Part shown: positions 3,776-58,734 of the stretch, piece after piece
Position numbering within the stretch: position 1 is the stretch's first letter
Layout of the letters: every line of letters starts with the position of its first letter
NCBI GenBank assembly: GCA_973895155.1
Contig: OZ316892.1
Location: forward strand, 14,686,861 to 14,750,860
From: Marsupella aquatica
Taxonomy: Eukaryota; Plantae; Marchantiophyta
Length of the DNA: 64,000 nt
Direction of reading: 5' to 3'
The notes under the pieces: generated by a model
Told to the model about the DNA's origin: nothing
Seen by the model: only the letters and a program-made list of their open reading frames with translations
Database searches by the model: none
Translations under genes and position numbers: made by a program

Positions 3776-8300
<4,525 letters not shown>

Positions 8301-25079: not shown

Positions 25080-25427
25080 GGAGGAATATGCTCAATAGAC
25101 CCCCTTCAGGAGAAATTTTACTTGATCAGCCCCTCCAAACTTTTTTGCCCCAGTCAGCCCCCTCATTATGGCCCGTATCCTTTTCTACCGTGTAAAGGCC
25201 ATACTGTACAGTTTTCAGCCTTACTGGGTGACTTTCACAGTACCCATTCAACCACGCAATAACCAGGCAAAAATCATAGTGACCGTGCTAAGATCCATTA
25301 CCAACGGGACCTCGTAGTTAGAGGTGAAAATCGGGCCTTGCACCTCCGCGCCGCCACTATGAACATTAGGGTTATCTTATGCTAATTAATTAGAATACAT
25401 TGACATGAGTGTATTCTATTTGTAAAA
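25080..25427 (+). repeat. MULE left TIR
   Basis: Reverse-complement match to 58081-58574 in two blocks: 25080-~25210 with ~58425-58574, and ~25302-25427 with ~58081-58203. Confidence 0.9.
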
Positions 25428-30912: not shown

Positions 30913-31271
30913 TGTCATGCCGAGGGACAATGCCGCTTGTGCACATCGGCATGTCCCTCGCATGCCCGCTAGGTATGTAGTTAGGGCTAGTGTACTACTT
31001 GAGTTAGTGTCATGTTCTTGTAGCAAGTCTGGGCCGTTCTTGAAGCAAAACGTGCTTGTTAGTGTGACGCCTTGACTTGATCTACTTAGGGCATGTCTTT
31101 CTTTGTCGGTTTTCAGTTCTTCTTGAATCGCTGTTGACAGAGCTCAGATAGTGCTCGTCAATTCCGTACACGGGATTCACACAGTGATTCGTTAGATGCT
31201 CCCGGCCGATCTTGGCATCCCGCCGGTTTTCGATTCGATTTCAGTACGATTGTTTCTCTTACGCCTTTTAT
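30913..31271 (+). repeat. Element 1 repeat A1 (359 bp)
   Basis: Direct repeat of 42023-42381, with about 11 mismatches by eye, mostly transitions. Confidence 0.95.
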
Positions 31272-31283
31272 TCAAGAAGAACT
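31270..31283 (+). promoter_or_regulatory. Putative self-priming PBS of element 1
   Basis: ATTCAAGAAGAACT sits at the end of A1 and is the exact reverse complement of 31115-31128 (AGTTCTTCTTGAAT), which starts in an initiator-like TCAGTT. Confidence 0.7.
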
Positions 31284-34200
31284 CGTCGAGATAGGGAAGA
31301 AGATTGCTTGTGACGATTTCGATAATTTCTGGTGAAGCCATTGCAATTTCTTCGACGGACATCGGAGTGACGAGTTAAAAGTTATGGGTTTATTGTGGTG
31401 TTATGTGTATACTTAAGTGTATACACATATGTATACACATAACAAGGGGTCCGGAGTTCCCTTTCCGGTTGCATCCGCGACTCTTTTGCTGCTTCCGACT
31501 GTCACTGCCGTTTGCCGCACGACCACCTCCCGACTACAACCTGTGGTTTGTAGGCCGCTGGCCCTTCATATTCCGGCCGCGACCTGCTTCCGGCCCAGTT
31601 TGCCTCCCGGCCGTGGAGACTCCTGCACCTTGCACGCCCGTCTTCCTCATTTTTGCTGCTTCCTGCTGTGGTCATTTCTCAGCCGCGTGACCACCTGAGT
31701 TTACAGGGCGCACCTCTCTTCCCGACTGCATAGGGCCGCGCGCCCGTTTTCTCTTGTTTTTTTTTCTCATTTTTGCCTTGCCAGCCTCGATATTTTCTTT
31801 CCTCTTTTCCTGCCGCTGCCAGTTTCCTGCCTTTATCTTGTAGGCTGTGCGTACAGGGCATCGTGTCTCCCACTGCCAGCATTTAATTAAGGAGAGGAGG
31901 GGGAGCAAGTACAAGCCGGGAGTCGAGAGGAGAAGGCACAGAGGCCTATGAAGCATTAACGAGGGGAGGGGGAGAGCCGAGCCACGGAGGGGAGGGGGGA
32001 AGCAGAAGGAGGGCACGAAGCCCTATGAGGAATTAAGGAGGAGCAGGGGAGTTAAGTCGACTCCCTTCTCGGGAGTACATACGACTCCCTCCTCAAGAGT
32101 TTCTGCCAGGGGCCCAAGGCCCTATGAGGGATTTAAAGCAGGGGAGTGGGAGCTCGTAGCTTCCCTTCGAGCTCATAAAGAGGGGGTGCGAAGCCCTATG
32201 CAGGGCTCGTGCCATTAAGAGGCCCAGTGTCATTCCTTTTGCCTTGACCTCCTCCCTCTTCGCCATTTTCCACTTCCTGCCCTTTTCTTTCTCCCTGCCA
32301 CCTTTGTATACACATACGGGAATGCAGTGTGCCCGCCTTTACTCCCCCCGATCCTGTCACACGCGACTTCTTTCCGGCCGCGATCTGCTTCCGACACCTT
32401 TTTCTTTCTGGCCACCACGCTGATGCATACACATTGGGCACCGGCCGGTGCCCTTTACGTGTATACACTGGCCTCCTGTGTATAAACATAAGGGAGCCAC
32501 CCTTTCCACTGTTTTTTGGTTGTTTTTCTTCGTTTTTATTTTGACCCTTTTAGGCAAGGTCGGTATACACATCGGGGCCAATTTCATCCTGTTTAGCCCC
32601 GGCCTCCTTGCCTCACGCGATTGCTTCATTTGTGGGTTAATTTTCTAGCCTGGGGGCTGTCATTTCTTTTTCTTGTCAGTTTCTTTCCCGACAGCCCCCC
32701 ATTCCACCAGAAACAGGGGGAGAAGACATTTCCTAAGACATTTCCTATTGCTACCATTTCCAATAATTTGGCACCCCGGGTGAGCATGCAGCATGTCAGC
32801 AGAGGAGCCGAGTCGTAGTAGCTCATCGCCACCAACACCCCGGTACCACTTACGGAGTGATCCACGACCGTTGATGCCAATTTCATTGGAATCTCGGCAA
32901 TTTTGACGACGTCAGCAGATAGCAACAGCACCCACACCACGCAATCCTTCTGCTACATTTGGCGGTAGCTTCACCACTACTCTGAAGCCTGCTATCACTT
33001 CATTGCCATTTACCCCTTTTGCATCCGTGGTTGTTCCTGCTTCACCGACATACAGCATGGACGCCAGCCACTCATCTGGCCGCATTGAACGCTTCAACGG
33101 GCGGCCAGGCACTGTTTCTTTGCGTGAGTTCAAATCCACTTTCTACACTGTCGTTTACAAATTGGAGTTGAAGTACGGTAGCAATTTCACAAATGCTTTT
33201 GCATTTAAGCAGCTAGCCAGGTATGTGCACCATGAGGCTTTGGATGTGTATGAGCAGCACTCTCAACGGCTGCTTGCTGTCACACAATTGCCTAACCCTG
33301 CCTATGCCAGTGCAATTGCGGCAGCATCATAATTGGCCTTACAGAATGCCATTGCAGCCCATGCTGCTGCTCCTGCCACTTCCCCTCCTACTCCAGTTCC
33401 TACCACGGCGCCAGTTACTCCCATTGTCTTGGCACAAGCTACATCAGGCATTTCTCCCACCATTGATTCTCCTGCCTTTGCTGATCCAGTGGCTGAGTTT
33501 TTCCAGGTTCTTGAATTGGAATTCCCAATCAAGAGTGCTGACAAAATCATGCAGTTGGCCACCTTTGTGAGGCAGCGCGATGAAACATTGAAGATGATGT
33601 ATTTCCTGCTTCTCAAGCTGAAGGAGGACACCCAGAGCATCATTGACCTGGAAGCTGCTCATCGCTATCTTCGCGCATTGGAGAGCACACCAGCTCTCCA
33701 TTCCCAAGTGTTGCAACAAGTATTCTCAAAGTTTGGAGATAGCTACACCCTGCTCAATGTCTATGACACTGCTGAGAAACTTGAGTTGGCCCATGCACAT
33801 TATGAGGCCAGTATTGCGCGCCCACCGCGATCCAGGTACCAGGCTACTGCCCCTACACTGGCCACCCCTTTGCGTGTGCCACAGTATGGTTCCAAGACCA
33901 AGCCAGCCCATGCTGCTTTCATGCTGCCATCTTTCAACTACTGTGGTAACCCCAATCACAAGGCTAATGAATGTGATATTGTTGCTGAGAACCTGTCTTG
34001 TGATTTTTGCGGGAAAGTGGGCCACTTGGAGGCAGTTTGTTTTGCCAAATTCCCAGAGAGGAAGCAGCTATGACAACAGGCCACTCATCTTGCTCCTGTT
34101 TCCACTCCCCCACCAGCTCGGAGGGCTCCTACTGCATCAGTTGCTCCTCCTTCCAGTGGCAAAGCACCCAGTGCCAACAAATTGCCCAAGCAGCAACAGA

Positions 34201-35898
34201 AAGCAACCAGCTCAAAAAGAGGCTCACAACGCACAGACAACTCAACTCTAGTCTCTAACTCATGAGGTTGAGTCCCTACGTGCCCAACTTGCCAACATCA
34301 AAGGCAAGTCAATTGCCTCTACTGGTCCTTCTCAACCGGCTGGTCACGTGCAACCCATTCCTGGCCCAGGCACCACTGACAGTTTAGCATCTCTACCCCG
34401 CTCTTTCTATGGCTTGCCATTTGATGCTCATATGGGTGAGTGTGTGCTGTCCTCTGCTACACAGCCTGGCCTTACAGCAGAATTTTCAGATTCATTCTGC
34501 CCTTCCTATTTTGCTTACCAGCAGGCTAGTGCAGCCTCCCGTATTGCTCCCACCCGCCGCATTGTACAAGCTGATGGTCTTGCTGCCGGTCCTATGACTA
34601 GAGCCAGGGAAGCTCAAGCTGTCTTGCCCCAATCTTTTCAGCCACTCACACTTGCTGGAGAGCGCACCTTGTTGGTGAGGGGGGAGGGAGCTGCAGCTAC
34701 ATCCATTCCATCACCAGGTGTTGCTGACATTTCACAGGGAGTTGTTTCTCCTGAGCTGCTTGAGCATTTCACCTCCGGTATGGCACAAAGGATCCTTACA
34801 ACTCCACTTTTCAGTTGCCATGATTTACAACTGGATGCTAGAGCTGTCATCAGAGCGCTAGAGGGCTCACTACATTCTTCATCAGCCCCTGTGACACTGG
34901 TTTTGGAGGTCCAATCTTATGTACATACTGGACCTTCTTCTTCTCCTTTACATGTTTCCACTGGTTTGACTGCCCCAGTACCGATTGCTGCTGATTGTGT
35001 GACCAGAGCTACACTTGATTCTGGTCATGCTGCTCCATCTTTCCTGGCTATGTTGTTGAGTGGAAAGACCGTGGACACTAACTCCCTTCACAAGGTACCT
35101 CATCATTTGCCGAGAGTGGTGCCTAGTGACAGGACTTCAGTTTCCACCACCATTGCCATTGTTGACAACAGGAATTCAGTGGTTAAGTTGGAGGGTCACA
35201 CTCCTCAGGTGGTCATGCTAGACACAGGTGCTCAACCAGTGATATTGGGCATTCAGTTTGCCAAGAAGATGAGACTGTTGACTGATCATTTACAGCAATC
35301 CAAGTGGCACATTCGGACTGCTAGTGGCACTGTGGAGGATGTGCTGGGTGAGAGTTCTACTTTACTCACTCTCACTTTTAATGGAGGTACAGATCAGGAA
35401 CTGCATTTCCCAGTCAGATGTTTGGTTACCAATGCCACTACGTATGATGTGCTCATTAGCCAGGAGGCTTTGTTCCCACCAGGTTTTACCATTGACAACT
35501 GGCATGAGCATGCATACTACAGACTTGATTAGCATACTGATGGCTCACACTTGGGCTACATTCCACTTGATTTGCATGGTGCCCATACACCTATGGCTCA
35601 CCACTGTGTGTTGAAAGCAGTGCACACAGCTACCTATGTCAACCACCCATTGCAAGATTGGATTGAGGAGGATGACGATGAGGTGGCTGCTGCACATGCT
35701 GCTACACGTATAGCAGCACTTTCCAGCAACGTGGATCATCAACCAGAGATGGTACAACGGCTCCAAGCAGCCCATGGACCTTTGGTGGCTGCATTGCGCA
35801 AGTTTGAAGACCTTGGATAGCACAATGGACAGCCAATAGCCCCAATCTTGAGCGCACTAGTTACATGGACTCCCCATCTTAGTTTGACCAGCGACCAC

Positions 35899-36399
35899 AG
35901 GTCAAAGAGGATTTCAGTGTGGTCCAGCACTACTTGGGACCACCCCTTCTCATTGATGCAGTGCACTGTGGTTCTTATGCACATCGTCTTCGTAACTTTT
36001 GGACTAACCTTGCACCACCTTCCTTGTTGGAGTTAGCTCTTCACCACACATCCAGGGACACTAACCTCACAGTGGACCAGATTTTGGATCCTGATAGTTC
36101 TTGCCAACCAGTTACACGGCAAGAGCCAGCACCTTGGTATCCAGCCAATACCATTGGACAGCCCCGTGTTGCTTGGCCTACATTTGTGTCCTTTCCAGGT
36201 GCACATGCTTTTCAGGGTGATGGTCCTGGCCTGGTTTACCGGCATTCTACCGGTACATGGGATGAACCCTAGTCCTGAGGAGAGAGAACGGGCTATGGGC
36301 TTCCAACCCGGTACTACATGCCACACCAAAATCACCAAGCTGGCCAGGAATGCTTTACTTGGCAGGGTAATGGATCTTAATGCTCTCACTTGGCTCCTG
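35899..36399 (+). pseudogene. C-terminal half of a DNMT3-like C5 methyltransferase in element 1 (motifs VIII-X only)
   Basis: LIDAVHCGSYAHRLRNFWTNL, EP-SPEERERAMGF and RNALLGRVMD align with the element 2 domain. The FGG, PC and ENV motifs are absent upstream. Confidence 0.8.
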
Positions 36400-39300
36400 G
36401 TCACTTGCATCCTTTTTCAGATGTACATTCATCCAACATCAGGAGTTCCAGCCCTACCACTCCATGGTGCTGCTACATGGCATCCAGAAGTGCACTTATC
36501 TCTATTCAACACTCACCGCTCCAGTCCAAGTGTTAGGGGGGAGGAGGTCCCTTGTAACGTGGCTGATATTATTTCTGAGTTTCATGGTGTGGATCAGACC
36601 AGAGCAACAGATACAACAGGCCGTGGAGAGGCCTCATCACCTTATCAGCAGCATGCTAGCAGCTTGGACAGTGGAGAGGCTAGCACTTCTGGCTCTTCAA
36701 GCATGAGTACATCAGGGCCTATTCCTAGTGTTGCCAACTACACGTTCATCATGGGCAACCACCTGAGTAAAAGACAGAAGGACCAGTTGCTGAATTTGCT
36801 CCTCAAGCATGAGAACGTGTTTGCTTTCTCTATGAAGGACTTGGGTAAGTGCAAGACCATGCAGTTCTCCATTGAGTTGGCTGATGAAACACCTATCTTC
36901 AGGCGGAGACATCGTTTGAGTAAGCATGAGTGGCAGCTGGTGGATGAGAGGTGCCAAGAGTTATATGAAGTTGGTCTTATTCAGCCATCTACATCAGATT
37001 TTGCAGCAGCTACAGTGATGCCAGCAAAGAAGGATTCCAGTGGATTGTGGACAGAGAAGCGCATGTGTGGGGACTACAGGCCACTGAACCTGGTCACACC
37101 CCAGGACAGGTACCCCATGCCACGGCTAGAGGAGCTATTTGACAACATTGGAGACTTAGACATCTTCACTCTTGTGGATCTAAGGCAAGGCTTTAACCAG
37201 ATTTTGCTGCTTGCAAAGGACCGCAAGAAAACAGCTTTCCATGGCAGTAACCAACTATGGGAGTGGTTGGTGATGCCATTTGGCTTGAAGAATGCGCCCA
37301 TATTCTTTCAAAGAGTCATGGACCAGGTTCTTCAAGGTGCTGAGTTTCTGAAATGCTACATTGATGATGTCTTGGTCCACAGCAAAGGATTTGACCAGCA
37401 TCTACTTGACCTCGAGGAGCTATTCATGAGGCTTAAGAAGGTGAACCTAAAGATACACCCCAAGAAGTGTGAATTTGCTGTCAGATCAGTAGTATACCTT
37501 GGGCACCGCATTCTTCCAAATGGAACCATGGCTCACTGGGCCAAGGTGGTATCCATCTTGGAAATGCCCACTCCTACCGATGTTCACACTTTGAGGAGTT
37601 TTATTGGGTTGTGCAATTACTACCGGATCTACATCAAAGATTTCAGCACCATTGCACACCCATTGTATGCTTTGTTGAAAAAGAATGTGACTTGGACATG
37701 GAGTACAGATGTTGAGGCAGCATTTGCCACTTTGAAGGAGAAGCTCTCAGAATACCCGATGCTGAGAAGACCTGATTTCAGCAAGGTCTTTGTGCTCCAC
37801 ACAGATTGGAGTGCCCTTGGGATTGGTGCCATTCTGGGCCAGCATGATGAGGAAGGTAAAGAGTACGTCATTGTCTATGCATCTAGGAGCAACAATCAGG
37901 CAGAGAGTCATTATTCTTCGTATGAGGGTGAATGTCTTGCTGTTGTGTGGGCTATCATACATTACAGGCCCTACCTCTATGGGACCAGGTTTGTCCTCTA
38001 CACCGACCACCAGCCCTTGAAGTGGTTGATGACCAACGACAAGCTTACTGGCAAGCTTGCTCGTTGGGCGCTCATACTCCAGGAGTATGATTTTGAGGTA
38101 ATTCATAGGCCTGGTGTGACACATCAAAATGCTGACACTATGTCCCGCAGCCCTTTGATTGCCTCTGATGATTCCTCAGATGCACGGCAGGATTTTGACC
38201 AGGTTTCCATCCTGCCTACATTTCATGCATCTACCTATCTTGCTTTGCTGCCATGCTACGTTGTCGACCAACCTGTGGTGGACATATGGGAGGAGAGCGA
38301 CACTCTGAGATTTCTGCAGCATGGGGAGTACCCCACCCATGTTACTGCTGCCCAGAGAGACTGAATTTAGCAAAGGTCCAAGCGCTACTTGTGGAAGGGA
38401 GATCATCTTGTGCGCTGCTTGCCAGATAGGGAAGTGGTGGTTCCACCCATTCATGAGAGGGTTGGCCTTATCCGTAAGGTACATTCTGAGCTTGGTCATT
38501 TTGGCGTTAAGAGGACTTACAGCCTCTTGGTCCCTCATTATCATTGGAGAGGCATGCATGGCCAGGTTCGAGATGTTATTGCCCGGTGTGAGCAGTGTGA
38601 TAGGGTAAGGACTTCTTTCACATCTCGGCAACCCACACTTCATCCACTCCCTATTCAGGGCATGTTTTATCGTTGGTCATGTGATTTGGCTGGAGAATTA
38701 CCCCTCACATCTCGGGGTAATCTCTAAATCATGATCATGATAGAGCATTTCTCCAAGTGGATAGAACTTGTGGCATTGCCGGATAAGACCTCCCGTAGCA
38801 CCAGCCAGGCATTCCTGCAACAAGTTCTCAGCCGCTTTGGAGCTTGTGCAGAATGTCTCACTGACCAGGGCTCAGAGTTTAGAGGAGAGTTCCAGGAGCT
38901 GTTGATCAGGCCCTCATTGATCATCGTCGGACATCACGAGATCACCCACAGGCAGATGGCTTGGCAGAGTGCATGGTTCAGACATGCAAGAAGGGTCTCC
39001 GAAAGATTTGCCTCACCAAAAACAAGGAGGATTGGGACCTGGCCTTACCCTACATTGCCATGGGGTATAGGATGTCTAGACATGCATCATTGTCTAACTT
39101 TTCTCCCTACTTCTTGTTGTTTGGTCGTCACCTAGTTCCACCTTCTGCTATTGCTGCTCACATGCTTCAGGTGGTGGACTTGGATTCAACTGTGACTTGG
39201 TCTGATGTGATCTCTGAGAGGGCTACCCTATTCAGGAGGGTTATGCCCATGGCCATGGAGAATTTGGCCATTGCACAACATAGGGACACACTGCGTTATG

Positions 39301-39570
39301 CACACACACTAGGGGGCACTTTTCAGCCCAAGGTCAGGAAGTTTGATATGGGAGATTTTGTGTACTTGCAGCGGCAAGCTAACGACACCCTGGACACCTC
39401 TACCAGTCGTACTATTCTCAGGGTTAAAGCTATTCGACCGTCTGGAGTGCTAGAGTTACAAGGGGCAGATGGGCGCACAATTGCTGACAATGCCAAGAAT
39501 TGCGCCCCTTGTCATCTGCCTAACCTGGATCCCACCATTGTGACTTCTACCTGGATTCCACCTGTGGACT

Positions 39571-41639
39571 CCCTAGGCCCTTAGCTTAGCTAATATGGGA
39601 CCCCCCGTGCAAACAACTCAAGGGGTTTATAAATCCTTTTTTTGAATAATAGTTATAATCGCTTATAATGTAACAACCCTTTGTTTTATTGGGTTCCATG
39701 TTATAATGAACCAAGGTGATCTAAAAAATAGGGTTCAAGTAGTTTTATGGAAGGGTAAAGCATATGGGGCCGCCACACGTCAATAACTCATTCATCCACG
39801 TGTCATTACATCCTTGGTTTGGGGTGTGCAAACACATTTGAATTTTGGGGGATAGGGGCAATTTTTCCTTTATGGGGTCTCGTTTACCATTTATGGATGA
39901 CCAAAATGGTCTGCCATTGATCTCTTTGATGCTCTATATCAAACGGTGTAGGGATATATATATATGGCCTTGTAGGGCCCCCAAAGGAGGAGGTCAAGTT
40001 GACAACGTTGTTCAATGCGTGTTGCGTTATATGTGGATTCTATGATGCCCCAAGTGATAGAGAGAGTCTCAATCCAGAGTCACTTATGTACCTCGGTGGA
40101 TATTTATCACTCCTAGTGATCAAAGAATTGGTTTAAATGTAATAAGTTTTCCAATGCTTTAGACTCAAAGGATAACTTTCTTGTAAACAATGATGAATAT
40201 GCTTAACAAACTATGGGACAAACTTAAGTGCAATGTGGACTTACAATTTTCATAGATGACAGCGTAGGATGTTTACAACTTAAATTTGGATACTTGTATG
40301 CGTTTGTTTGACTCTTAAATGCCTTGACTCCTACCTTCTTGCGAGGAAGTGTGTACATAAAGAATCCCTGGGCCCTCAGCATTACTAATACAGGGAGGAC
40401 GTGCGAACAACGCAAGGGTATTTTTAATGTAATACAAACAAATTTTAATAATAATTTTGAAAGTAGGCAACATCCCTTTATATACATTCATCACAATATT
40501 AGTAATAAGGCTCTTATCAAATACATGTCACATTATTCTTACGCAAGGGTACCCAAAATGCCAAGTACACGCGTCACTATATGGTTGGGACACATACAGT
40601 CATCACCTCATTTGCACACGTGTTCATATAGTAAATCAGACATTTAATTATTTGTTGTCTTAAGGCAAGTTTAGTTTTGTGGGACCCTTTATGGTGGGAC
40701 AAATGGTTTTGGGTAGACATGTTTACCCACATGTTTAGGAGTTAAGTCTGGAGTTGAGTAAATGTTGGGAATCTGGGATTGATGGGGATCATGGATCAAC
40801 CCCACATGGACGGACAAGATTACTTTTGAATTCTCTTGAATAAAAAAGCCAGGTATGAGGCTAGATGTGTTTGCGTGTGTAGGGGGTATCGGGTGCTCAA
40901 CCAATGCTTGTTATAGTTGGTTCAGACTTTGGAGTATTATCCCTCGATTATACATATAGTACTCATGAAACCAGAAGTTTAGAGGCACTGTTGCGAACAC
41001 TAAGAGGAGAGTGCATGCCTGTTTGTATACTATAGGAAGAACTATTCTTGTAGTGTATTAATTTTGTTCATCTATATAAAATATGTATCCTGAACATTGG
41101 GCGTAACAGCCATACAAGTCCCCTATGCAGTCTCATCTATTTCAGTATGATATTTGCAATTTTAAAAATTCAAGGGTTTTTTCAATTCCTTGAAAAACTC
41201 TATTATAATTTACAAAAGGATAAAATTTAATAGAAAAGTTAATATTTTTACATTAACAAGGATATTTTTTTTGTGAACAAAAATATTAAGAAGGGGTACA
41301 CGGGGGGTGTCTGTTCTCAGGGGGGTTCACTTAATATAGTAAGAGTGAGGGCCCAGGGTAAAGAATATGTTGTTCCTATTTTTGCTTTTGATAATGTGAA
41401 ATGTTTATTCCAATCTGTTTGACTTAGAATCTCTTTGACAAGATTTTTTTTATAACACCTGAAGAGCATATTTAATGTCATTTTGATGAAGATTATAATA
41501 GCCCAAAGGGCTTTCTTAATGACCCAAAAGTAATTTATTAATACTAATAAGAGCTTTTTAAAAGAGCAAAAAATAGTACTGGAGGGGAGGGGCGTTCACA
41601 GACGGGTTCCATTAATATACACGGAGTACGGGCCCAGGG
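39571..41639. mobile_element. Non-autonomous TIR DNA element inserted between integrase and PHD of element 1
   Basis: Ends are CCCTAGGCCC...GGGCCCAGGG. 8-bp TSD TGTGGACT at 39563-39570 and 41640-41647. Removing it restores ...WIPPVDYPCKMC. Confidence 0.9.
40366..41358. mobile_element. Second non-autonomous TIR element with the same end type, nested in the previous one
   Basis: Perfect 13-bp TIR CCCTGGGCCCTCA. 8-bp TSD TAAAGAAT at 40358-40365 and 41359-41366. Confidence 0.9.
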
Positions 41640-41844
41640 TGTGGACTACCCTTGCAAAATGTGTTTGCGAATTGACGATGCTGACCAGATGCTGCTATGT
41701 GATAATTGCAATGGAGGGTACCATCTTTTCTGCTTGCGGCCTGAACTTACCCAGGTGCCAGAAGGGTTATGGTTTTGCCCTTCCTGTGCTCCACATGCCA
41801 CCTGACTTTTCCTCAGCCCTCCTTGTGACTGTGGTCTGGGGGGG

Positions 41845-42381
41845 ATACAGAGGTTTACACCTCCACTACGTACATACCACCTCAGTTGCTTTTTCTTGGC
41901 ACTTGGGAATGTGATTGGACTTTTTCTATGCATGTTGGTTGCTAGCAGCTTGCACATATGCATTGCCGGTGACTTGTATGTTTTCGATACACTATGGCTA
42001 CGATACTATATGTCACGACAGCTATCATGCCGAGGGACAGTGCCGCTTGTGCACATCGGCATGTCCCTCGCATGCCCGATAGGTATGTAGTTAGGGCTAG
42101 TGTACTACTTGAGTTAGTGTCATGTTCTTGTAGCAAGTCTGGGCCGTTCTTGAAGCAAAACGTGCTTGTTAGTGTGACACCTTGACTTGATCTACTTAGG
42201 GCATGTCTTTCTTTGTCGGTTTTCAGTTCTTCTTGAATCGCTGTTGACAGAGCTCAGACAGTGCTCGTCAGTTCCGTACACGGGATTCACACAGTGATTC
42301 GTTAGGTGCTCCCGGCCAATCTTGGCATCCCGCTGGTTTTTTATTCGATTTCAGTACGATTGTTTCTCTTACGCCTTTTAT
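41845..42381 (+). repeat. Element 1 B1 (41845-42020) + GC + A2 (42023-42381); the unpermuted 3' LTR-equivalent
   Basis: Directly follows a G7 tract (41838-41844, PPT-like). B1 matches 42384-42406 + 51527-51679 (176 bp, ~3 mismatches). A2 matches A1. Confidence 0.9.
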
Positions 42382-42716
42382 ATATACAGAGGTTTACACC
42401 TCCACTTGTCGTGCGCATACATATCGCTACACAACATACATCGCTTGTCACATACATCCAGACATAGTCACACTGCCACATCACAAATACAAGAGAATGG
42501 AATACAAGTGGAACTCATGTCCACACATGTCCAAAACCCACAATCGCCCCCCTAGCTGGGAGTAAGGTCCCCTAACTCTAGCTAGCCATGAGTTCTACAA
42601 GGTTGATATACACCTTTTTAGGTGTGAAGATCAGGAGGCCGGGTGCAAGTGAGCCCCATCGATCACCTACCTCCAATCCATATCTGCCAAGAGAACACAA
42701 ATGATACTAGTCGGCT

Positions 42717-45700
42717 TCACCGACACTGAGGACACAACCATGATCCACTAGGAATCACCTGTAATGGTGGTGTCAAACATGACATGTGCCATCCTCTAGA
42801 ACACTTATCACAAATCAACATAGTAGCTGCTCCCTGAGCAGATCCACACAACATACATTTCAAGCCAGCACGAACATGTGCCAAGCTTGGATCTACTGTA
42901 CCATCAATGTTGGGAAGGTGACATGGTGCATAGTTGCGCACATGATCCTTCCAAACCATACCATCGCGTCCCTCCAACATCAGGACACCAGAAGGCAACA
43001 CTTCACGCACACGTAAGATTGTCCGGCCTGCGGTCACATCAAGTGTCGTGGGTGCTGTCTGCTGCAAATAAACATAATCACCAGGATGAAATCGTCGAAT
43101 GCTTGCACGATAACCTCCTCCACGAATAGTGGCATACCTCAAAGTATCACGATGTTGGGCAATGGCAAGGTTGTCAAAAGCCATGGGCATCACTCTCTGA
43201 AATACCCGTGCTCTCTCTGAACACACCTTGACCCAAACATCAGGATCATCCAAGTTCACAACTGGTGCAGCATGACGACGAATAGCTGCTGGAAAATCTG
43301 GCTCTCTACCATAGAGCAAAAAGTAGGGTGAGAAGGATGCAAGTGATGCTTGCCGACTGAAACGGTAGCCCATAGCTAACCAAGGTAGCTGGAGATCCCA
43401 ATCTCCCAGATGACCAACCTGCAAGCCATACTTACGCAATCCTCTCTTCACAGTTTGCACAACTCTCTCAGCTAATCCATCTGCCTCAGGATGATCACGA
43501 GAGGTAGTGCGATGATCAATCAGAGCTTGTTCACACAAACTCTCAAACTCTCCACGGAACTCAATTCCTTAATCAGTCAATACCTCAGCTGGTGCTCCAA
43601 AATGACTGAGTACACGATCCAAAAATGTAGCAGCAACTCCTCCACTGGCTTTATCTGGCAACGCCACTAGCTCAATCCACTTGGAGAAGTGCTCCACCAT
43701 GACCAAAACATACCGATTATGACGTTGGGTAAGAGGTAATGGACCAGCAAAATCCAAACTCCAACGATATCCCAAACCCATGATCGGTAACGGGTGCAAC
43801 TGGGGAGTGGGAGCATTAAATGATGCTCTCACTCTGTCACATACCACACACTTAGCTATCAACTGCTGGACATGAGTGTGCATACCACGCCACCAATATT
43901 GTGTCTACAGCAAGCTGTAAGTGCGCTTCACACCAAAGTGACCCAACTCCTCGTGCGCATGTCGCACCAAATGTACTCGTTGTGATGGTTTTGGTACCAC
44001 CAACATCCTACCATCATGCAGTACTCTCAAAAGATGGTTTCCCTCCCATCGAAACCTCTTGGCTCTCTGTAGAACCCTGTCACGTTCCTTGGCATCAACA
44101 CTGCCAACAATAGAACTATTGCGCAAATATTCCAACACTCTCACATCATTGTGAATATCTTGTTGTCCAGAAGTTACCTCACCAACATCCACATCTGAAG
44201 ACTCATCATCCACTCCATCCAATGAGGTAGAGTCCACAGATCCACTGTATGCTGGCACCCAACAAAGAAAGGCAGATGCATGCCATCCTGGCACCATCTC
44301 CTTATCTGACTCATCACGCCATCTGGCTTCAGTCTCATCGTGCTGACTGGTACATGGATTGCGGCTTAATCCATCTGCATCCAAGTTCACTTTTCCAGGC
44401 CTATGCACCACCTGGAAATCATACTCCTGTAACAACAATGCCCATCGTGCAAGCTTCCCTTTAAGCTTGTCAGACTCCATTAACCACTTAAGAGGCTGAT
44501 GATCAGTGATCAAGGTGAAGGGGTTACCAAACAAGTAGCAATGAAAGTGTGCAATAGCCCACACTGCTGCCAAACACTCTCCCTCATAAGAGCTATACTT
44601 AGCCTCTGCTGAATTGTTTGATCTACTGGCATAAGCCACAACAAACTCATTCCCCTCATCATCCTTCTGAGTCAGCACTGCTCCAAGTCCTACTCCACTC
44701 CAATCAGTGTGTAGCTGAAATGGTCTGCCTGAAATGGGTCTTCTCAAAATAGGGGATGATGCCAACCTTTGCTTCAACTCCTGAAAGGCATGCTCCTGGT
44801 CATCACCCCAAATCCATTCCTGATCCAACTTAGTGAGTATGGTCAAAGGTTTAGCAAGCTGGCTAAATCCTTTAACATACCTCCTGTAGTAGCTCGCCAA
44901 TCCCAAGAATGCACGAACTCTACTCACATCAGTAGGACAAGGAATCTGTGTAATGGCCTCCACTTTAGTCTGCTGTACACCCAATCCCCCTGGATATATG
45001 GTGTGGCCCAAATACTCAATCTGGTCTTGGAAGAACTTACACTTGCTAGGATGGAGCTTCAACCCATGTGCTCTCAATCTCTCCAACACAGTCTGCAAGT
45101 GCTGCTGATGTTCTTCCACAGTAGAATAATAGACCAAAATATCATCAATATAACATCTGACAAAATCCAAACCTGCAAGGATTCGATCCATGACTCTCTG
45201 GAACTCAGCTGGTGCATTCTTCAACCCAAATGGTAAGAATAACCATTGATACAAACGATCTTTGCCATAAGAATCAATCCCCCAGAATGCTGTCTTGGAC
45301 CTGTCAGCATGCCTAATTGGAAGCTGATGGTATCCTGCCCTCAGAATCAATGAACTGAAAACCTTTGCATGCCCCACAGCATCAAAGATCTCCTCAGGTG
45401 TGGGCATGGCATATCGATCAGATTTTGTCTGGCGATTAATAGGTCTGTAATCACCACACATGCGCCTATCTGTGTAATTGCCATGCACATCCTTCTTGGC
45501 TGGCATCACTATGGCAGATGCATACTCCCCATATGAAATCTCCACCAATCCAGCCTCCAACAAATCTTGAGTTCTGCTTTGAATCAGAGCTCTCTCCATG
45601 TCACTATAACGGTATGGTCTACGAAAGATTGGCGCATCACTAGCCAATTCAATCTGAATACCAGGGCCCTTCAATGTCCCCAAATCCTTCATGCTGAATG

Positions 45701-48700
45701 CAAAACAATTCCAATAACTCTTCAGGAATCGATGCATGCGACATCTCTCCTCCCCTATTAACTTAGGGCCAAGCTGTGGTTCCCAACTCTCCACCAAATC
45801 CCTAATATCTCTTTGTAGGGTAGAAGAGATAGCCGATGATTGCTATTTAGCAGTAGATTGAGAAGTCCCTTCCTGCTCAACAATCTGTCCAGCCGCCAAT
45901 CCTGTCATAGGTCCATGAACTGTCTGCTCGCCCCCAGCTGTGGTCAATACTGTCTCAGTGGACCGCAAGCTCACCAAGGGACAATCAGTAATTCCGCCAG
46001 AGCGCATCCGCAACTGTTCAGCTACTCCCAAGCTGATAATCCAAGTCAAACAATTCAAATCCATTGCTTGACCAAGAACCTGGCACCGCAAACCCTCTGA
46101 CACAGAGGCAACTGCAGTGGTGCCAGTCAAAAATCCCATAGCACGCTCTCTCTCATCAGCAGTAGGCTCCACTAACTGCTGGAGAGCTGTGTCCCATAGA
46201 AGTCCAGGGCCACCTACTCTGAATGCATATGAAGCAGAGTGGCTTACAAGAGTGGGTAATGCACAACGTGGGCACCCAACTACATTGACCATTGCCAATG
46301 GAGGTCTATCAGGTTGGGTCACACCCTGTGCACGATGCCCTGGATCCAAAATATCATCCACCACTAAGGCTGGTGAGCGTGGAATGTTGTCAAATGCGCG
46401 CTTCAGCACCTCACATGGGATCAAATTAGTCCACCACAAGCGTGGACGATGTGCACGAGAACCCACACGTGCAGCATCCAATAACACAACAGGTCCAATC
46501 CAAGACCTCACCTGGTGAACACTGGCAACGATCTGACTACGATCATCACCTAACAATGGCACATTCTCCAAAATGTATGCTGGAGACTATGTCTGATGTA
46601 GCTGGAGATGACGCAGCACCCGTAACATCTCCCAAAACAATGCAGAGCGTGGATCATGAAGTCCATGCCCAATGCCAGCTCTAGATTGGCCCTGACATGG
46701 CCAACCAGCAATCACCAAATCAATGGGGCCAACACGATGTAGATGATCCGCCCCCAACAATGAAATATCAGCAGGTAGTGCATGCTGATAACCACGAACA
46801 GCATCCACTGGCAGCAACTGTGGATATCTATCCACCAACATAGCTAGCCACATGTCGCAATGAGACCCTCCGTGTTGTCTCATCTGTCTCCACATACAAA
46901 TAACGACGCACAGGAATTCCTGCCTGAAGAACAGCAGCCAATCCAGTGCTAATCCCACCAAAAAGATCCAACAAACAAATACCCTCCGGTGGATACTGCC
47001 AAGCAATAGGAGTGGTATCCAATGGTGAAAGAGTCACAGGTCCATTTGCAAGAGACTGCTCTGCTCCTGACTGTGGTGTAAAAGCATGACGCCATGCATC
47101 ATGTACCAATCGTGTTGCTGCCTGTGGTAAGGCTTGTGCAATGCCCCACACTGGTGGCACAACACTGCCAACAGGTAATCCTCGCATGACGTGCTCTTCA
47201 TGAGACTCCTCCAATGGTGGAACATCGGCTGCATGCGCATTACCCTCAATCAAATCATCAGGTCTAGCAATTACACCACTGAATGCTGCCAAAGACAATG
47301 GTGTGGATTTAGGGCCTCCCACAGGTCCACTAAATCTCACTGGCAATTTGCTCAATCGAGCATCTCCTGACTGCCAATCAGGTCTATATGACACTGATTC
47401 CTCCCAAAAATCAAGAATAAATCCCATGGGGTAGAGCACTGTACATCCCACCAACACATCATATGACTCTGCCTTAGTCAGAATAGCTCGCGCCTGTATC
47501 TGTGAGCTATCTGTGGTATGACCTTCCTGAATCCTCAAATCAAGTGGTCTCCTGGTGATATGCTGTGTAGGTGTAGGTCCCCCCAATGAAGTCTGAATGG
47601 GAAAGGGACAATCCTCCAAATCCTCTGGATGCAATCCCAATCCACGTATGACAGACTTCCCCAACATCAAGGGCTGAGCACCAGTATCCAGTAACACTCT
47701 CTCTGGCTGGTATACTGCTCTAGAAGGCTCAACTAATCGGAAGATACCACTCCGATTATCCAATGACACAACACTAGGTTTAAACCTAGTCCTCTCAAAT
47801 GCAGGGCGTGCTGGTAAATCCACCAACCTCGCTGCTGTTGCATGCCATGTCTCACTAGTAGCAGTAGGTGGCATGGTCTTCACTACATCAACACTGCAAG
47901 TTGCTTCTGCATGGGAAACAACCACTGGAGTGTCCTCACAGAGTGTAGCTGCCAATCTGAACACTTCTGCAGGACCAACTCCCAAGTTCAGCATGTTTGT
48001 CATTGAAAATAATGGGGTGCATACTATGGCAGTAGCCGCCCCCAGCAAGGTACCTGTCATCCCTGCTGCATCACTACCTGATTCTGCCAACTTACCCACA
48101 TCAGGGTTTGTCCAAACCGGGTTCATAGAGGCAGTCTGAACAATGTAAAAGACTGAGGAAGCTTTGTCTGCCTACGTGCATCCCCCCTTTGTGGATCTAA
48201 CTCCACTACTGCTCCTCGGGGCTCAAGAGCTTTGGCTGCCCCACGTGTCAAAGCTGCTGATGCATCAATATGTGCAGTGCCACACATGAATCCCATGGTG
48301 GCAAGGTCTCCATCAGCTCCATAAGATGTGGAAGGACCATGGGATATGGAAGGTCCATAGGATGTAGATGCCCCATCACCAGAATTAGGTCTCACCTGGG
48401 AACTAGCCATGGCAGCTAGTTGTTGCTCCAATTGAGCAATCTTAGCATCCTTTGGATCTATGGTTACAGCAGGGGCAGCGTCACCTCCCTGTCTCCCTGC
48501 ATGTGGCATGCCACGACCACGTCCACCACCTCTACCTCCTCCTCCTCTTCCCTGATCATGTGTACGGGATCCTCCTCTCCGTAACTCAGGGTGGAGTGAG
48601 AAACACCTATCCTTGGTGTGTCCAGGAGCTCCACAGTGATCACACTATCGCTGATCAGGCGCTGATGCTCCCCCTGATCCTCTATGATCTGGACAATATC

Positions 48701-49826
48701 TCTATGCATGATCCCCACCATAGGTCCAACATCCTGACTGCTGTCCAGCATAAGAGGGCACAGGTCTTTGGCTGGTAGACTTTCGTGCAGTAGGCTTCTC
48801 CCTCTGGCTCTTCCATGCAGTAGGCTGTGGTATGGATGTAGATGCAGCCTTTGGTGCTTCCTTGGCAAATCCGGAAGTCACCACCTTCTCATTCACCATA
48901 TTGAGCTCAATGCGCTCAGAAAGGGTGAAAACAACTGCTAATGTGGGATCTGCATCCCTAAGCAGAGTGACATCTCTCACTCTGCGTCGCAATTCTCTGT
49001 CCAAAATTGCATACCAAAACTGGACTGCCTGAGCCTCTGTCACTCCCTTGGTGATAGTGATCAATCTGTGCATACGTGTGTATGCCTCACGTAGGCTCTC
49101 TCCAGTCTTGCGTTGGAACTCCTGAAGACCCTTCAACTTATCAGTTCTCACACCCTGATAGTTCTGCTTCAGTACCTCAAAGAATTCCACCACGGGATTA
49201 AATGCTGGCGCAACTCCAGTTCCTGTCATAATCACACCGGCAGGAGTAGTGGTGGATGCTGCTGGAGTGCTGCTGGTGGATGGTGTGCCACTCTGGCTAG
49301 TGCTGCTAGAAGAAGCAGCAGCTGTGGCAATGGGTTGGGCAGCCGCACTAGTGCCATAGGTGATGGACACGTAATTAGGCGACCAATGCTGCCTCCATGC
49401 CTCAATCTCAACCAAATGAGCCTTCCGAAACTCATTGTAGTCATCCATGGGTGGCCCCTCCAAATGCTGGAATAATCCCTTCCATGCCATGAAAGGGGTA
49501 AACAACGTGACGTTACGCAATGTCTGCATATCGCACCACGTATCAAACTCCTGGATGAAGTCATCCAGATCAATTGTGCCAACTGCACCAGAGTATCGTC
49601 GTGGGTCCTTTGTAGCCCCGTACATCTCGTCCATATCCCACAACAAAGGTGCAACCACCTGATGATGAGGAGAACTGGTCACTGAGTCCTCATCAGAATC
49701 ACTGTCTGAAGCTGCACTGCTGACTGCTACCAATGCCGCTGGCCGAAACTGTGCCCCACTCCGAGTGAAACCGGTCCGTCGTCCATCGGGTAATCCAGCA
49801 GCACCAAAAGAATCCGTGGTGACCAA
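42717..49826 (-). pseudogene. Element 2 gag-pol polyprotein: Gag(CCHC)-PR-DNMT-RT-RNaseH-IN-PHD; several in-frame stops and about two frameshifts
   Basis: Motifs CDHCGAPGHTKDRC; LLDTGAQP; RMCGDYRPIN, LPFGLKNAP, YIDD; LHTDWS, DHQPL; HEELGHFG..CVVC, WSLDFAG, ADGLAERVV. PHD CMLC..LICDKC..WHMSC..WLCPQC*. Confidence 0.95.
46032..46980 (-). pseudogene. Full-length DNMT3-like C5 cytosine methyltransferase domain between protease and RT of element 2
   Basis: Motif I LDLFGGI; II YVE; IV DLVIAGWPCQG; VI ILENV; VIII SRAHRPRLWWTNL; IX ERERAMGF; X RCQVLGQAMD. One frameshift (~46848) and one TAG (46587-46589). Confidence 0.92.
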
Positions 49827-50374
49827 CCCTAACCTAATCTATGTGCTAACCCTAAGGGCAATCTATCTCTGTCAGCACCACAAGCACTCACCATGGTGTG
49901 TTGGGTATCACTCCAACATCACCAAGAGAGAAATACACAGCACACTAGAATGTCTAGTTGCAAACCCGGATCACTCCTATGGAATCAAGCGCCCACACGA
50001 AACTAACATGGCGCATAAACAGGAAATATGTGTGAAGAGGATCCAGAAACAAGAATGGATACCATTCAACTCTCCACACAAAAGCAAATGCAAATCAATA
50101 TGACAATGTGCATAAGGTTCAAGGAAGAGCCTTCATAATAGGCTTCACAATGGCACTCCAATGTTGTAGATGAGAACCAAGGCAAAATTGGTTCAATCTG
50201 TGAGTCTAGATGGACTCAGAAGTATCAAAAACCCTAAAACAGCCTCTGATTTGGCCTAGAATAGGCCTCTAAACAAACCGGGAAGTGTATAAAGCCCCCT
50301 GGCGCTTGAATCTAAACAACAAGTTGTCAAAGCTTATGTGTACACAAGGTGGGATGAGAACTTGCCAGTTAAGC

Positions 50375-50925
50375 GCTCGCGGCTGGGAATAGCCCCGGGA
50401 TGGGTGACCTCCTCGCACTCAACCTTGTGCCTCCCCTCGCGCTCACGGCCCGGAATAGCCCCGGGATGGGTGACCTCGACCTCGCGCCTGCCTGCGCTCG
50501 CGATGGGTGACTTCGCGCTCGCGGTTGGGAGCACTTTCGGGATGGGTGACCTCTCGCGTCGCCTCGCGCGAGCACTTTTGGGATGGGTGACCTTGTGTGC
50601 CTCACACCTGACCCCAAAAACGACTACTTCCTTCACGAAAAGCTCCCGAAAACTGTCGATTTTCTTCATGAAAAACGCAGCCCTTCCACAGAATTGGCAG
50701 CAGCTTGATTCAACACCTTTGACCCTCATTTCTTTCACTGAAATGATGATACCGTCGCACGGGGCATTGGCAGCTCTTTTCCTTCAGGAAAAGAGCCGTC
50801 GCTTCACCTGCGCCTTGCCAACATCGTCCAACAATAGCCGGCAATCAGATCTGAAGCCCCACAGTAGCCGACAATCAGATCTGAAGCCTCACAGTAGCTG
50901 GCAATCGGATCTGAAGCCTCACGGA
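50375..50925. repeat. Tandem repeats in the 5' leader of element 2
   Basis: gatgggtgac recurs about 5 times in 50398-50595. A 30-bp unit acagtagc(c/t)g(a/g)caatc(a/g)gatctgaagcc(c/t)c occurs x3 at ~50831-50922. Confidence 0.8.
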
Positions 50926-51181
50926 TTGACTTCCACTGTCCAACATCTACTCAACATTCGCTTTCCTCCACGAATCATCAATCGACCTCCAACTCAAAAC
51001 CTGTCACAAATCACAGATTTGTACATCGATCGGGAAGCAGGCCGATCGGACAACAACGATACAGGTCAAGATACCAACGATCTGTTCGATAACAACACAC
51101 GATCCGAGCTACCACGAACCGTCAACAACTCAATCAATCAAACTTCTGTCTGCACAGTCCGTACAACAGATTTTGAATGCG

Positions 51182-51193
51182 ATCTTTCAATGT
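51182..51193 (-). promoter_or_regulatory. Putative self-priming PBS of element 2
   Basis: 51182-51193 (ATCTTTCAATGT) is the exact reverse complement of 51372-51383 (ACATTGAAAGAT). On the minus strand the latter begins in an initiator-like TCATCT. Confidence 0.6.
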
Positions 51194-52168
51194 AATCTCC
51201 ATACAATCGGCACAATGATCTCGGTCAACAATACCCCATCGATCCCGCACCGATCCGATCACACACGTATGTCAAGCCAACGCACCTTGCACTACTCAAG
51301 GAATCCACGTTACACAAGCGGAGCTCACAGCCACCATAGCCACACTCAAGCTCCTCTCTCTCCAAGGCTCAACATTGAAAGATGACCTTTCAATGCCTCA
51401 CAAGTGAGAAGTACCCCCTCACACAAACCTGACAGAACCTTATCGGCTCCAATAGCACTCATACCAAACGTACATACTCTAATAGCACGATATACTACTA
51501 CACTACTCAGAATGGTGTGACACACTACGTACATACCACCTCAGTTGCTTTTTCTTGGCACTTGGGAATGTGATTGGACTTTTTCTATGCATGTTGGTTG
51601 CTAGCAGCTTGCACATATGCATTGCCGGTGACTTGTATGTTTTTAATACACTATGGCTACGATACTATACGTCACGACAAATGTAGCAGTAGCTTCAGAT
51701 ACAATGTAGCTTGATTGGAAGGCAAGGAGGCCCATGATACATCTACACTGCAAGGTCACAACTCGACTTGCAACTTGTACTGGAAACATTTATGAATAAA
51801 AAGCAAGTTACATTCACTGTGTTCTTATGTATAAAAGTTATTCATTCTGCTGGATACTACCTTCAGTCTGCACCTTCAGTTTTGGAAGACATTGTCCATA
51901 TAGTCTTCGCACCACACTTAGCCATTTTTCCAACGACAGGATATTTTGCTTGAAGAAGAAATTTGAGCGAGGGTACGTAAATGGCCAACACTAGTGGTTT
52001 CACACAAGATGCACATGACAACTGCAAAACAGTTTCGAAATTTGTAGAACATCTCTAAATTGTTGGAGTACAATGCTGTTGCAGACTTCAATGTCTGCAA
52101 CTAAAGCAAAATTGCAATTGCTACTTCCTGTGAGCTATTATTTGAACTTGTTACCACTGTGGTGTAAA

Positions 52169-53384
52169 CTAAGTCAAGAGCTCATTGCTACAAAATACTT
52201 CCCCACAACAGGTGCACCTAAATACTTCATGCCCAGACTCATCTACTCCCAGCAACTCAACATTAACTCTATGACCATCTGCTTTGATAGGAGCCCTCCA
52301 TTGTGCACCCATTGCACTAAATTGTCGTTGAAGCCATGCCTCCGCCTCAGAATGGGACCTAAAAGACTTGTGACTAGCTCCACTTAATCCACTCACCTGA
52401 CATTCTGCCTCCTCCCAAGTACGATATATTCCAGGACTGCGCCCCCTAGCAATGGCATACCATTTCTTCTTTGAGGTAGAGCCTAGATCACAATTGTATG
52501 GAAGAGCAATTGACTTAGAGCGAGAGGACAAAGTCTGTGATTGTAATTTCACCCTTGTGGCAGGCTGAGTTTGCGCAACGTCAACCAATTGTGCTTGTGA
52601 GGCTGACGAAGATGGACCCCGGGTACGCAACTCTTATATAATAGACAGGGGTCTACATTTTTATGTGGACTAAAAAGTTGGTTATACAAAATAATTAAAA
52701 TTTGAAAAAACCTGGGTTTTCCACTTTTAAAAATTTTCAAGTCATATAAAAGGTTTGGTTTTCTTCATTTTCCATATGAAATTAAAAAATATTCTTATAC
52801 ATGTTGTAATTTTTATTAAAAGATTTTTAAAATTTTAATAAAAATCCTAAAAAGCTGGCTAGTTTGGCTGTAGACCCCTGTATTAAAAAAAACCCATATA
52901 ATTTGGTTTTGATCAACTTTTTGTACATCAAAACATGTTTGGTTTTTTTTTAAAGTTACATTTTTGAATTCCTTGAGTTCAGAGGTACAAGACTTTAGTA
53001 GACTAAAATGAAATCTAAGATGGTCAATTGGATATAAGGCCGTTATAAGGAATTAAAAACTTGCCTTATAAAAAGGGGAGTTGCATACCCGGGAGATGGA
53101 CCTGCATTAGCACCCTGGCGCCGAGCCAATACAGGTTTTGGTGGCCCAACAACAGCCACTACAGGGGAATCGTGACCCTCTGATTTTGATGGCACTGTAC
53201 TTTGAGCAAGGGGAGGTAGCCTATCTCGATTCCACACTGAAGACAAACACAAAATCCGTTCCAACATGCGATGGAGGAAGAAGAGTAGTGCACTCAAACC
53301 TGCAAATACGGTCCATATGGCGAACCCCAATGCCCAAAACAACTGAACTACAAAACCAACACTGCCTTCATTGAACTTGGCCAT
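52169..53384 (-). pseudogene. MULE-borne gene: N-terminal hydrophobic helix + RNase H1 N-terminal/caulimovirus P6-like hybrid-binding domain; ~243 aa once the MITE is removed
   Basis: MAKF..FVVQLFWALGFAIWTVFAGLSALLFFL joins in frame (GANAGPS|SSASQ) to KWYAIARGRSPGIYRTWEEAECQVSGLSGASHKSFRSHSEAEAWL after excising 52618-53093 and one TSD copy. Confidence 0.8.
52618..53093. mobile_element. 476-bp AT-rich MITE
   Basis: 16-bp TIR CCCGGGTA(C/T)GCAACTC. 8-bp TSD AGATGGAC at 52610-52617 and 53094-53101. Confidence 0.92.
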
Positions 53385-58080: not shown

Positions 58081-58574
58081 GTTTACAAATAGAATACAAT
58101 CATGTCAATGTATTCGCATGCACGTAACATAACCCTAATGTTGATCGTGGCGGTGTGGATGGGCAAATGCCCAATTTTGACTTCTAATTATGAGGTCCCG
58201 TTGCCTGATTAATGCGCGCTTGACCCTAAACCGCCCCGACAATGTGCGCCCCAACAATGTGCGCCCTAAACAGAAATTTTGTTGAATACATAAACCACGA
58301 AGTATTCACGCTCATAAGGGACCATAGTGCGAGAACGCAAAACCGCGTAGTTGCGGCCCTACTGCAGCGGAGTCTCATGGTCGACTGCGGGAGGCGACCC
58401 TGCATGGTGGCATGGCTCCCAACTGTGTAGTATGGCCTTTACACGGGGGAAACTGCCTTACACGGGAGAAAAGGGTACGGGCCATAATGAGGGGGCTGAT
58501 TGGGGCAAAAAAATTTGGAGGGGGCTGATCAAGTAAAGTTTCTCCTGGAGGGGGTCTATTGAGCATATCCCTCC
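58081..58574 (-). repeat. MULE right TIR
   Basis: Reverse complement of 25080-25427, with a diverged and longer middle section. Confidence 0.9.
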
Positions 58575-58734
58575 AAAATTGGCTAAGCCATTTTCTCGGC
58601 TGCGTAAATTCGCTAGATTCCATTTTTGGCAAAATTGTCTGAGCCATGCTTTGCTCATAAATAGATGGCGTAAGTTCTCTAGATTCCATTTTTGGCAAAA
58701 TTGGCTAAGCCAATGCTTTGCTCATAAATAGATG
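58575..58734. repeat. Short tandem repeat interrupted by the MULE; another copy lies at 25032-25079
   Basis: gcgtaa(a/g)tt..ctagattccatttttggcaaaattg occurs at ~25043, ~58602 and ~58668. Confidence 0.85.

Follow-up and report, generated by a model that had tools for sequence, protein, structure and literature searches.

A gypsy-type retrotransposon family in liverworts with a DNMT3-like methyltransferase parted from reverse transcriptase by a conserved, putatively leaky stop codon

Background

A Ty3/gypsy-type retrotransposon, here called E2, was found in the window, i.e. the whole 64,000-nucleotide stretch of Marsupella aquatica DNA that was analysed, and it encodes a DNMT3-like cytosine methyltransferase (DNMT) between its protease (PR) and its reverse transcriptase (RT). 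A Gypsy-borne DNMT3 is known from the alga Klebsormidium, and the land-plant range is an extension of that finding. The parts that appear to be new, judged from sequence comparison, are the split of DNMT from RT by a conserved stop codon, for which readthrough is predicted, and a conserved junction between the split terminal repeats.

The use that a transposon makes of its own DNMT3 was left open by the 2018 paper on such elements (PMC5890265), in which the algal domain was inactive in yeast. The question is now testable, since Marchantia polymorpha, a model with methylation mutants, carries such elements; its copies are annotated as hypothetical proteins (e.g. Mp4g09160 and Mp8g17980).

Results and discussion

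Identity and setting of the methyltransferase

The preliminary description of this DNA had named a series of C5-methyltransferase motifs and had read them as DNMT3-like and non-permuted; all were recovered in that order, on the minus strand (Table 1). The Pfam comparison that it suggested was made with the part of the domain 3' of a frameshift, X being written at the single internal stop, and gave a match to PF00145 (E 3.1e-11; 43.7 bits, the cut-off being 22). With a profile from 59 relatives, DNMT3A scored 104.7 bits, 4onj (which we take to be a DRM-type structure) 54.4, DRM2 42.8, HhaI 36.1 and DNMT2 27.9. The solved structures closest to the E2 domain are those of DNMT3A, 3C and 3B, and an AlphaFold2 model (pLDDT 95.6) of the intact relative L007, which is 69% identical to the E2 domain, retrieved a DNMT3 structure as each top match listed by Foldseek. 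The family has the non-permuted motif order with the catalytic PC, ENV and RxR; the catalytic Cys and the Glu of ENV are conserved in all 59 aligned sequences, and for each of the two Arg of RxR the count is 57. At the level of sequence the E2 domain is thereby confirmed as a non-permuted DNMT3-like methyltransferase. Cellular DNMT3A/B and plant DNMT3 (PMC6453930) share the order of its motifs and its catalytic residues and have a similar fold, with a TM-score of about 0.70 when normalised by query length, whereas the identity to them is only about 21% and the element domain comes without PWWP, ADD or the plant N-terminal domain.

Table 1. Positions of the features of E2 and E1 in the window
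Feature	Position	Strand	Basis or remark
E2, whole element, A-coding-B form	42407..51522	-	TGTC start, GACA end; dead copy
E2 target-site duplication (TSD) CACT, left copy	42403..42406	+	4 bp
E2 TSD CACT, right copy	51523..51526	+	4 bp
E2 Gag with zinc knuckle	48141..49634	-	two in-frame stops; 55% to Marchantia P0006 residues 1-479
E2 aspartic protease (LLDTGA)	47380..47720	-	Pfam E 0.0025, weak, below cut-off; homologues up to 82%
E2 DNMT3-like C5 methyltransferase domain, motifs I-X in order	46011..47000	-	Pfam, profile and structure matches
DLFGGI	about 46968-46951	-
IAGWPCQ, Cys codon	46697-46695	-
LENV	about 46571-46560	-
AHRPRLWWTNL	about 46450-46420	-
ERERAMGF	about 46150-46128	-
VLGQAM	about 46080-46060	-
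E2 stop TAG then CAA TCA (CAR-YYA), predicted readthrough site ORF1/ORF2	45837..45845	-	sequence comparison
E2 reverse transcriptase and RNase H, beginning of integrase zinc finger	43905..45842	-	Pfam
E2 DDE integrase (H2C2 and rve)	42900..43990	-	Pfam; in-frame stops at 43905, 43569
E2 C-terminal PHD finger and final stop	42717..42860	-	E 1.5e-10
E2 G-rich polypurine-tract-like run immediately upstream of repeat B	42545..42558	-	sequence
E2 repeat B, CACGACA end	42407..42544	-	74-76% alike to B of related loci
E1, second Gypsy-DNMT3 lineage, A-coding-B-A-B	30913..51679	+	TSD AATG; E2 nested in last B
E1 repeat A1	30913..31271	+	97% to A2
E1 DNMT remnant, C-terminal half only	35886..36432	+	alignment; motifs I-VI absent, frameshifted
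E1 repeat B1, preceded by G7 run	41845..42020	+	sequence
E1 internal B/A junction CACGACA-GC-TATCATG	42014..42029	+	sequence; two-base spacer, near-palindrome
E1 repeat A2	42023..42381	+	97% to A1

The order of domains in E2 is Gag, zinc knuckle, protease, DNMT, RT, RNase H (RH), integrase (INT) and PHD finger, and thus includes the PR-RT-RH-INT order with a DDE integrase of Ty3/gypsy elements. E2 is a dead copy, as follows from two frameshifts and several stops, and its damage differs in part from the single frameshift with in-frame stops first described: a frameshift (about 46850) and a stop (46587-46589) do lie within the domain, but a second frameshift is found at about 48140, upstream of PR, and the stop at 45843-45845 is shared across the family, as a conserved trait and not decay. 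Likewise, the placing of DNMT in the polyprotein between PR and RT holds for the order of the domains, but not for an uninterrupted polyprotein, DNMT being parted from RT by a conserved UAG-CAR stop. The PHD finger of E2 is closest to those of CHD4, DPF3, KMT2D, ATXR5, KDM5 and PHF21A; several such fingers bind H3 tails that are unmethylated at K4, as does the ADD domain of DNMT3.

A conserved stop codon closes the Gag-PR-DNMT frame

The stop of E2 (TAG-CAA-TCA) fully matches the consensus of TMV-type readthrough, in which the stop is followed by CAR-YYA (PMC2194720). The linker between DNMT and RT was surveyed in 83 sequences (81 loci, E1 and E2); the end of DNMT and the start of RT share a frame in 38 of these, or in 32 once near-identical sequences are dropped. 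A stop lies 100-112 codons upstream of RT in 28 of the 32 and is followed by CAA or CAG in 23 and by the full CAR-YYA in 7, against 2 cases of CAR after the 53 other linker stops. The 23 cases are not independent, as 16 belong to one family (the L001 family), with a CAA-CCC/CCT context that is one base off the consensus. Outside that family, the intact element L027 has a Gag-PR-DNMT frame of 1369 codons and a single TAG-CAG-TTA, after which the same frame stays open for another 1047 codons, and L081, otherwise intact, has the same two-ORF plan with TAG-CAA-TCA.

The proteins agree with this picture. Among the best 120 of 126 database matches, 28 of the 38 PR-DNMT proteins without RT have their C-terminus 62-173 residues past DNMT, and the closest of them (P0005, 85% identical) ends at the very residue of the E2 stop. 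Against it, DNMT is fused to RT/RH in 11 of the same 120, all of them eukaryote gene models; the three fused Marchantia models that were checked, at the level of the proteins, skip the stop region. The algal-type relatives, in contrast, are called without introns and have DNMT truly fused to RT, for which reason the stop, which is absent from them and from E1, was probably acquired in a single clade, supported at 98/98 by the RT tree. DNMT hence shares an ORF with RT/RH in E1 and the algal-type relatives but not in the E2 lineage.

Recurrent CAG-to-TAG decay was rejected as the source of the shared stop, which is carried by 16/16 copies of one family and by two otherwise intact elements. A stem-loop after the stop was rejected as well: single folds gave z-scores of -0.4 to -2.8, but no conserved pairs were predicted 3' of the stop in an alignment of 12 sequences. 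Taken together, the linker and protein comparisons indicate that the stop of the E2 lineage is a family feature and that DNMT closes the Gag-PR-DNMT frame, and RT, RH, integrase and PHD are very probably made by ribosomal readthrough of the UAG-CAR stop.

Other stops were seen in the same region. At 111 codons upstream of RT, two copies of the E1 lineage (L053 and L071) have TAA or TAG with TTG-GAT after it; L039 and E1 itself have sense codons at this place, and the stops may be due to decay or may be a different signal. Another lineage has a readthrough-like stop 13 codons past DNMT (TGA-CAA-TTA or TGA-CGG; L052:1291-1302 and L065:875-886), and several of its proteins end 11-24 residues past DNMT; by its context this is possibly a second, independent leaky stop.

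Distribution, phylogeny and selection

The protein search with DNMT gave 126 matches, and the named relatives among the best 120 are from Marchantia polymorpha (up to 75%), Calypogeia fissa (70%), Sphagnum, Closterium and Haematococcus; a profile search added P0327 of Klebsormidium nitens. No named vascular plant occurs among the DNMT matches listed (best 120 per search), and two scans of viral contigs yielded no relative. As to domain layout, 38 of the best 120 of 126 have PR-DNMT without RT and 11 have DNMT followed by RT/RH, against 62 with DNMT after RNase H or before integrase (the domain stands alone in 9), so that DNMT occupies two places in related polyproteins. The second place is exemplified by a large sister group (P0048-P0124, loci L044 and L061) in which a single ORF has DNMT inserted between RNase H and integrase and whose named members are from the chlorophyte Haematococcus; no description of this group was found in the literature searched.

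A kinship with the DNMT-bearing retrotransposon of a charophyte, already suspected in the preliminary description, is suggested by P0327, which has the PR-DNMT-RT-RH-INT order of E2, a DNMT 46% identical to it, and a place with these elements on one side of a 100/97 branch of the RT tree (midpoint-rooted, without DNMT-free Gypsy outgroups). Under that midpoint root, the Klebsormidium type is sister to the Closterium type plus the E2/Marchantia clade (96/95), a branching that resembles the host tree. E1 belongs to another lineage of bryophyte elements, which is closer to the Closterium type. The RT and DNMT trees, which comprise element domains only and no host DNMT3, broadly match; the long branches P0243 and L058 were left out of the final tree and 13 RH/IN-type rows were kept.

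The dN/dS ratios indicate that DNMT is under purifying selection across the family, and not evolving neutrally, which would have spoken against the earlier reading. For DNMT the ratio is 0.12 between L026 and L027 (dS 0.29) and 0.15-0.18 between E2 and seven related loci, at dS values (1.5-1.7) that are near saturation, and the RT of such pairs gives 0.07-0.18. Three pairs of close dead copies have ratios of 0.49-0.69, as decay after insertion would give.

Prokaryote genomes were also searched, and a single one of 56 pattern matches (L081) is a relative. Since L081 is complete, Gag, RT and PHD included, we read it as eukaryote contamination and rejected a bacterial donor. Whole or partial elements are filed under bacterial metagenome-assembled genomes (MAGs) in three cases (L081, P0091 and P0285, under Synechococcales, Minisyncoccia and Obscuribacterales), most likely all through such contamination. 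Elements of this kind may contaminate bacterial MAGs and may also inflate the DNMT counts in annotations of bryophytes.

Split repeats and the internal junction

The complete form of these elements, A-coding-B-A-B, is present in E1, L034, L063 and L074; no internal repeat pair was found in E2. B is preceded by a polypurine-tract-like G-run and has CACGACA at its end, and A has TGTCA at its start. The spacer at the internal B/A junction is invariably two bases long (GC in E1, L001, L069/L074 and L081; AC, TC, GT or AT in others), and a GC spacer makes the junction, of CA-NN-TG type, an almost perfect palindrome. Of the distinct 3' ends, 10 run on into A and 12, that of E2 included, stop after the first B, and both forms carry 4-bp TSDs; the duplication is exact in 8 of the 11 elements with both ends and agrees in three of four bases in the other 3. 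TG...CA ends with a TSD in the range of 4-6 bp are those of Ty3/gypsy elements, but two matching terminal LTRs, as in ordinary Ty3/gypsy, are absent, and finders that require two LTRs would miss such elements. Two tRNA primer-binding motifs that were looked for were absent, as was a TGG after A1 in E1, L034, L063 and L074, and the ORFs of the element gave no Pfam match to a tyrosine recombinase, having an rve integrase instead.

The split repeats and 4-bp TSDs suggest an undescribed route to integrase ends. A cut after CA on both strands of the junction would give the same ends as 3' processing by integrase, and the circle junctions of the IS3 family are a parallel. Symmetrical cutting of a two-junction circle predicts A-B-A-coding-B copies, of which there are none among 14 distinct 5' ends, and this counts against a simple circle model. 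The short A-coding-B form may instead have arisen once the element was inserted, one B repeat recombining with the other. The ends of L081 overlap by 30 bases. An assignment to Troyka was rejected, since Troyka has CG...CG ends and a 3-bp TSD and is confined to animals in the available part of PMC12440569, against TG...CA, 4 bp and a liverwort host here.

A possible role for the methyltransferase

The sequence itself provides two in-frame ORFs, one conserved stop, intact catalytic residues in the family and purifying selection. The conserved, putatively leaky stop suggests that, in the E2 lineage, selection favoured a much larger amount of DNMT than of RT and integrase, which narrows the possible functions; bulk expression is not required by the wider group, as the stop is missing in the algal relatives and E1. 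We propose, at about even odds, that the Gag-PR-DNMT frame together with readthrough leads to packing of DNMT at Gag-like amounts and to methylation of new cDNA. A few percent of the ribosomes would pass the stop, and the protease would release DNMT within the particle, where it would methylate cytosines of the cDNA (probably in CG, like other DNMT3s) before or at integration. A new copy would then arrive pre-marked, and host maintenance enzymes would retain the mark. The PHD finger may guide integrase to histone H3 tails, and, as the weakest step, integrase might use the internal CA-NN-TG junction to obtain the TG...CA ends and the 4-bp TSD.

The reading that joins all of this, i.e. that a lineage as old as the streptophytes, and surviving in liverworts (Marchantia among them) and mosses, packs DNMT3 in capsid-like amounts by means of a leaky stop and integrates by cutting the palindromic CA-NN-TG junction of a circular cDNA, so that its copies land methylated, is put forward tentatively, being much less likely to be true than false. 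If true, the chemistry of an integrase would be combined with a circle of the DIRS kind, and land plants would have a transposon among their sources of de novo 5mC.

The surplus DNMT could instead act in trans on chromatin, be it resident copies, competing elements or host loci, and so limit the element itself or silence its rivals. Gag-level expression would far exceed the enzyme need of one cDNA, and self-limitation was raised by de Mendoza et al. (PMC5890265). We nevertheless hold action in trans to be unlikely, as the DNMT domain is without a targeting module of its own, the PHD finger being on ORF2, and the K. nitens methylome is ordinary (PMC5890265).

With regard to the predicted readthrough, the stop might be real and yet be avoided in another way, through splicing, reinitiation or a promoter inside the element. 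An ATG lies three codons past the stop in the L001 family and five in L026, Marchantia gene models place introns over the region, and the gag stop of Tca2 gave no readthrough in a reporter (PMC2194720). However, the frame of ORF1 and ORF2 is kept and CAR follows the stop in four diverged groups, and L027, L045 and L068 have no Met before codon 117 of ORF2, which in L027 is the earliest Met and lies inside RT; a bypass is accordingly quite unlikely.

About as little credit is given to a domain that would bind SAM together with nucleic acid, or would act on RNA as a modifying enzyme, without meaningful DNA methylation. The Klebsormidium domain produced no methylation in yeast, a result that its authors call inconclusive, and the DIRS-borne Dnmt3 of Symbiodinium methylated CG in the same host (PMC5890265). 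The element also has no distinctive CpG footprint: observed/expected CpG is 0.34 in the E2 coding region, 0.33 and 0.40 in unrelated transposon stretches of the window and 0.74-0.76 in host genes. CpG depletion was therefore rejected as a sign of self-methylation and marks methylation of transposons in general. Against a role without DNA methylation stand the invariant Cys and Glu, the conserved RxR and the score of DNMT3 far above that of DNMT2 (104.7 vs 27.9 bits). Within the elements, CpG is retained in the leaders of E1 and E2 (0.77-0.81) and depleted in their coding regions (0.28-0.34), and CpG-rich tandem repeats are present in the E2 leader (window 50371-50553).

That E2 alone captured a host gene fragment, now a decaying passenger, is extremely improbable: E2 is indeed broken and E1 lacks half its domain, but the domain has the same position in many relatives from liverworts, mosses and algae, is without introns or a TSD of its own, is under purifying selection and has a tree that broadly matches that of RT, so that the original view stands, by which it belongs to the element and did not enter it as a secondary insertion.

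Comparison with known elements

The closest known case, KnitGypsy-Dnmt3 of K. nitens, has DIRS-like repeats, DNMT in the Pol ORF and a Ka/Ks below 0.2; its origin was assigned to the K. nitens lineage (PMC5890265), and later work cites it as a streptophyte element (PMC12344493; bioRxiv 10.64898/2026.05.21.726589). The E2 family resembles it in the intronless, non-permuted Dnmt3 within a Gypsy coding region, the DIRS-like repeats and the purifying selection, and differs from it in the land-plant host, in the conserved stop that parts DNMT from RT, and in the short A-coding-B forms with TSDs that are common in the present family. The main text of PMC5890265 contains no mention of readthrough, PHD or target sites. 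SymbioDIRS-Dnmt3 likewise combines a retroelement Dnmt3 domain with A-coding-B-A-B repeats, but has a tyrosine recombinase where the E2 family has a DDE integrase and 4-bp TSDs (PMC5890265).

An in-frame stop followed by CAR-YYA, as in E2, is found in TMV-type readthrough and at gag/pol or pol/env stops of MuLV, Tca2 and SIRE1 (PMC2194720); the E2 stop comes not after gag but after protease plus an accessory enzyme and before RT. The Chlamydomonas elements Gypsy-7a_cRei and REM1 share a PHD finger in the polyprotein with E2, but no methyltransferase is described for them in the consulted parts of PMC9940879 and PMC6673714. Those parts, and the corresponding ones of PMC6453930, PMC10952607, 10.1101/363937, PMC7466625 and PMC12440569, contain no closer case. 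No report of the land-plant occurrence, the readthrough stop or the junction was found in the mostly open literature, Repbase aside and exclusive of the supplementary trees of PMC12344493 and 10.64898/2026.05.21.726589, which possibly hold bryophyte sequences.

Surroundings of the elements

E1 has no stop between its DNMT remnant and RT. Its integrase is split from its PHD finger by an AT-rich stretch of about 2 kb (window about 39570-41570). Both retroelements, together with a MULE transposase (54200-56435), are enclosed by inverted repeat arms 33 kb apart (25074-25379 and 58125-58580, 77-94%), the whole being probably a Mutator-like element with nested insertions. An ORF on the minus strand (52169-52633) matches PF01693, the N-terminal domain of RNase H1 (E 6e-19), and likely derives from another transposon. 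Host genes in the window are a GH9 glucanase (4024-5273) and a P450 close to MpCYP823A (19671-22647); an exon of the latter shares 92% of its residues with a protein of Calypogeia fissa and 58-63% with proteins of Marchantia, Riccia and Plagiochasma, an affinity to leafy liverworts close to Calypogeia that upholds the occurrence of the lineage in a land-plant genome.
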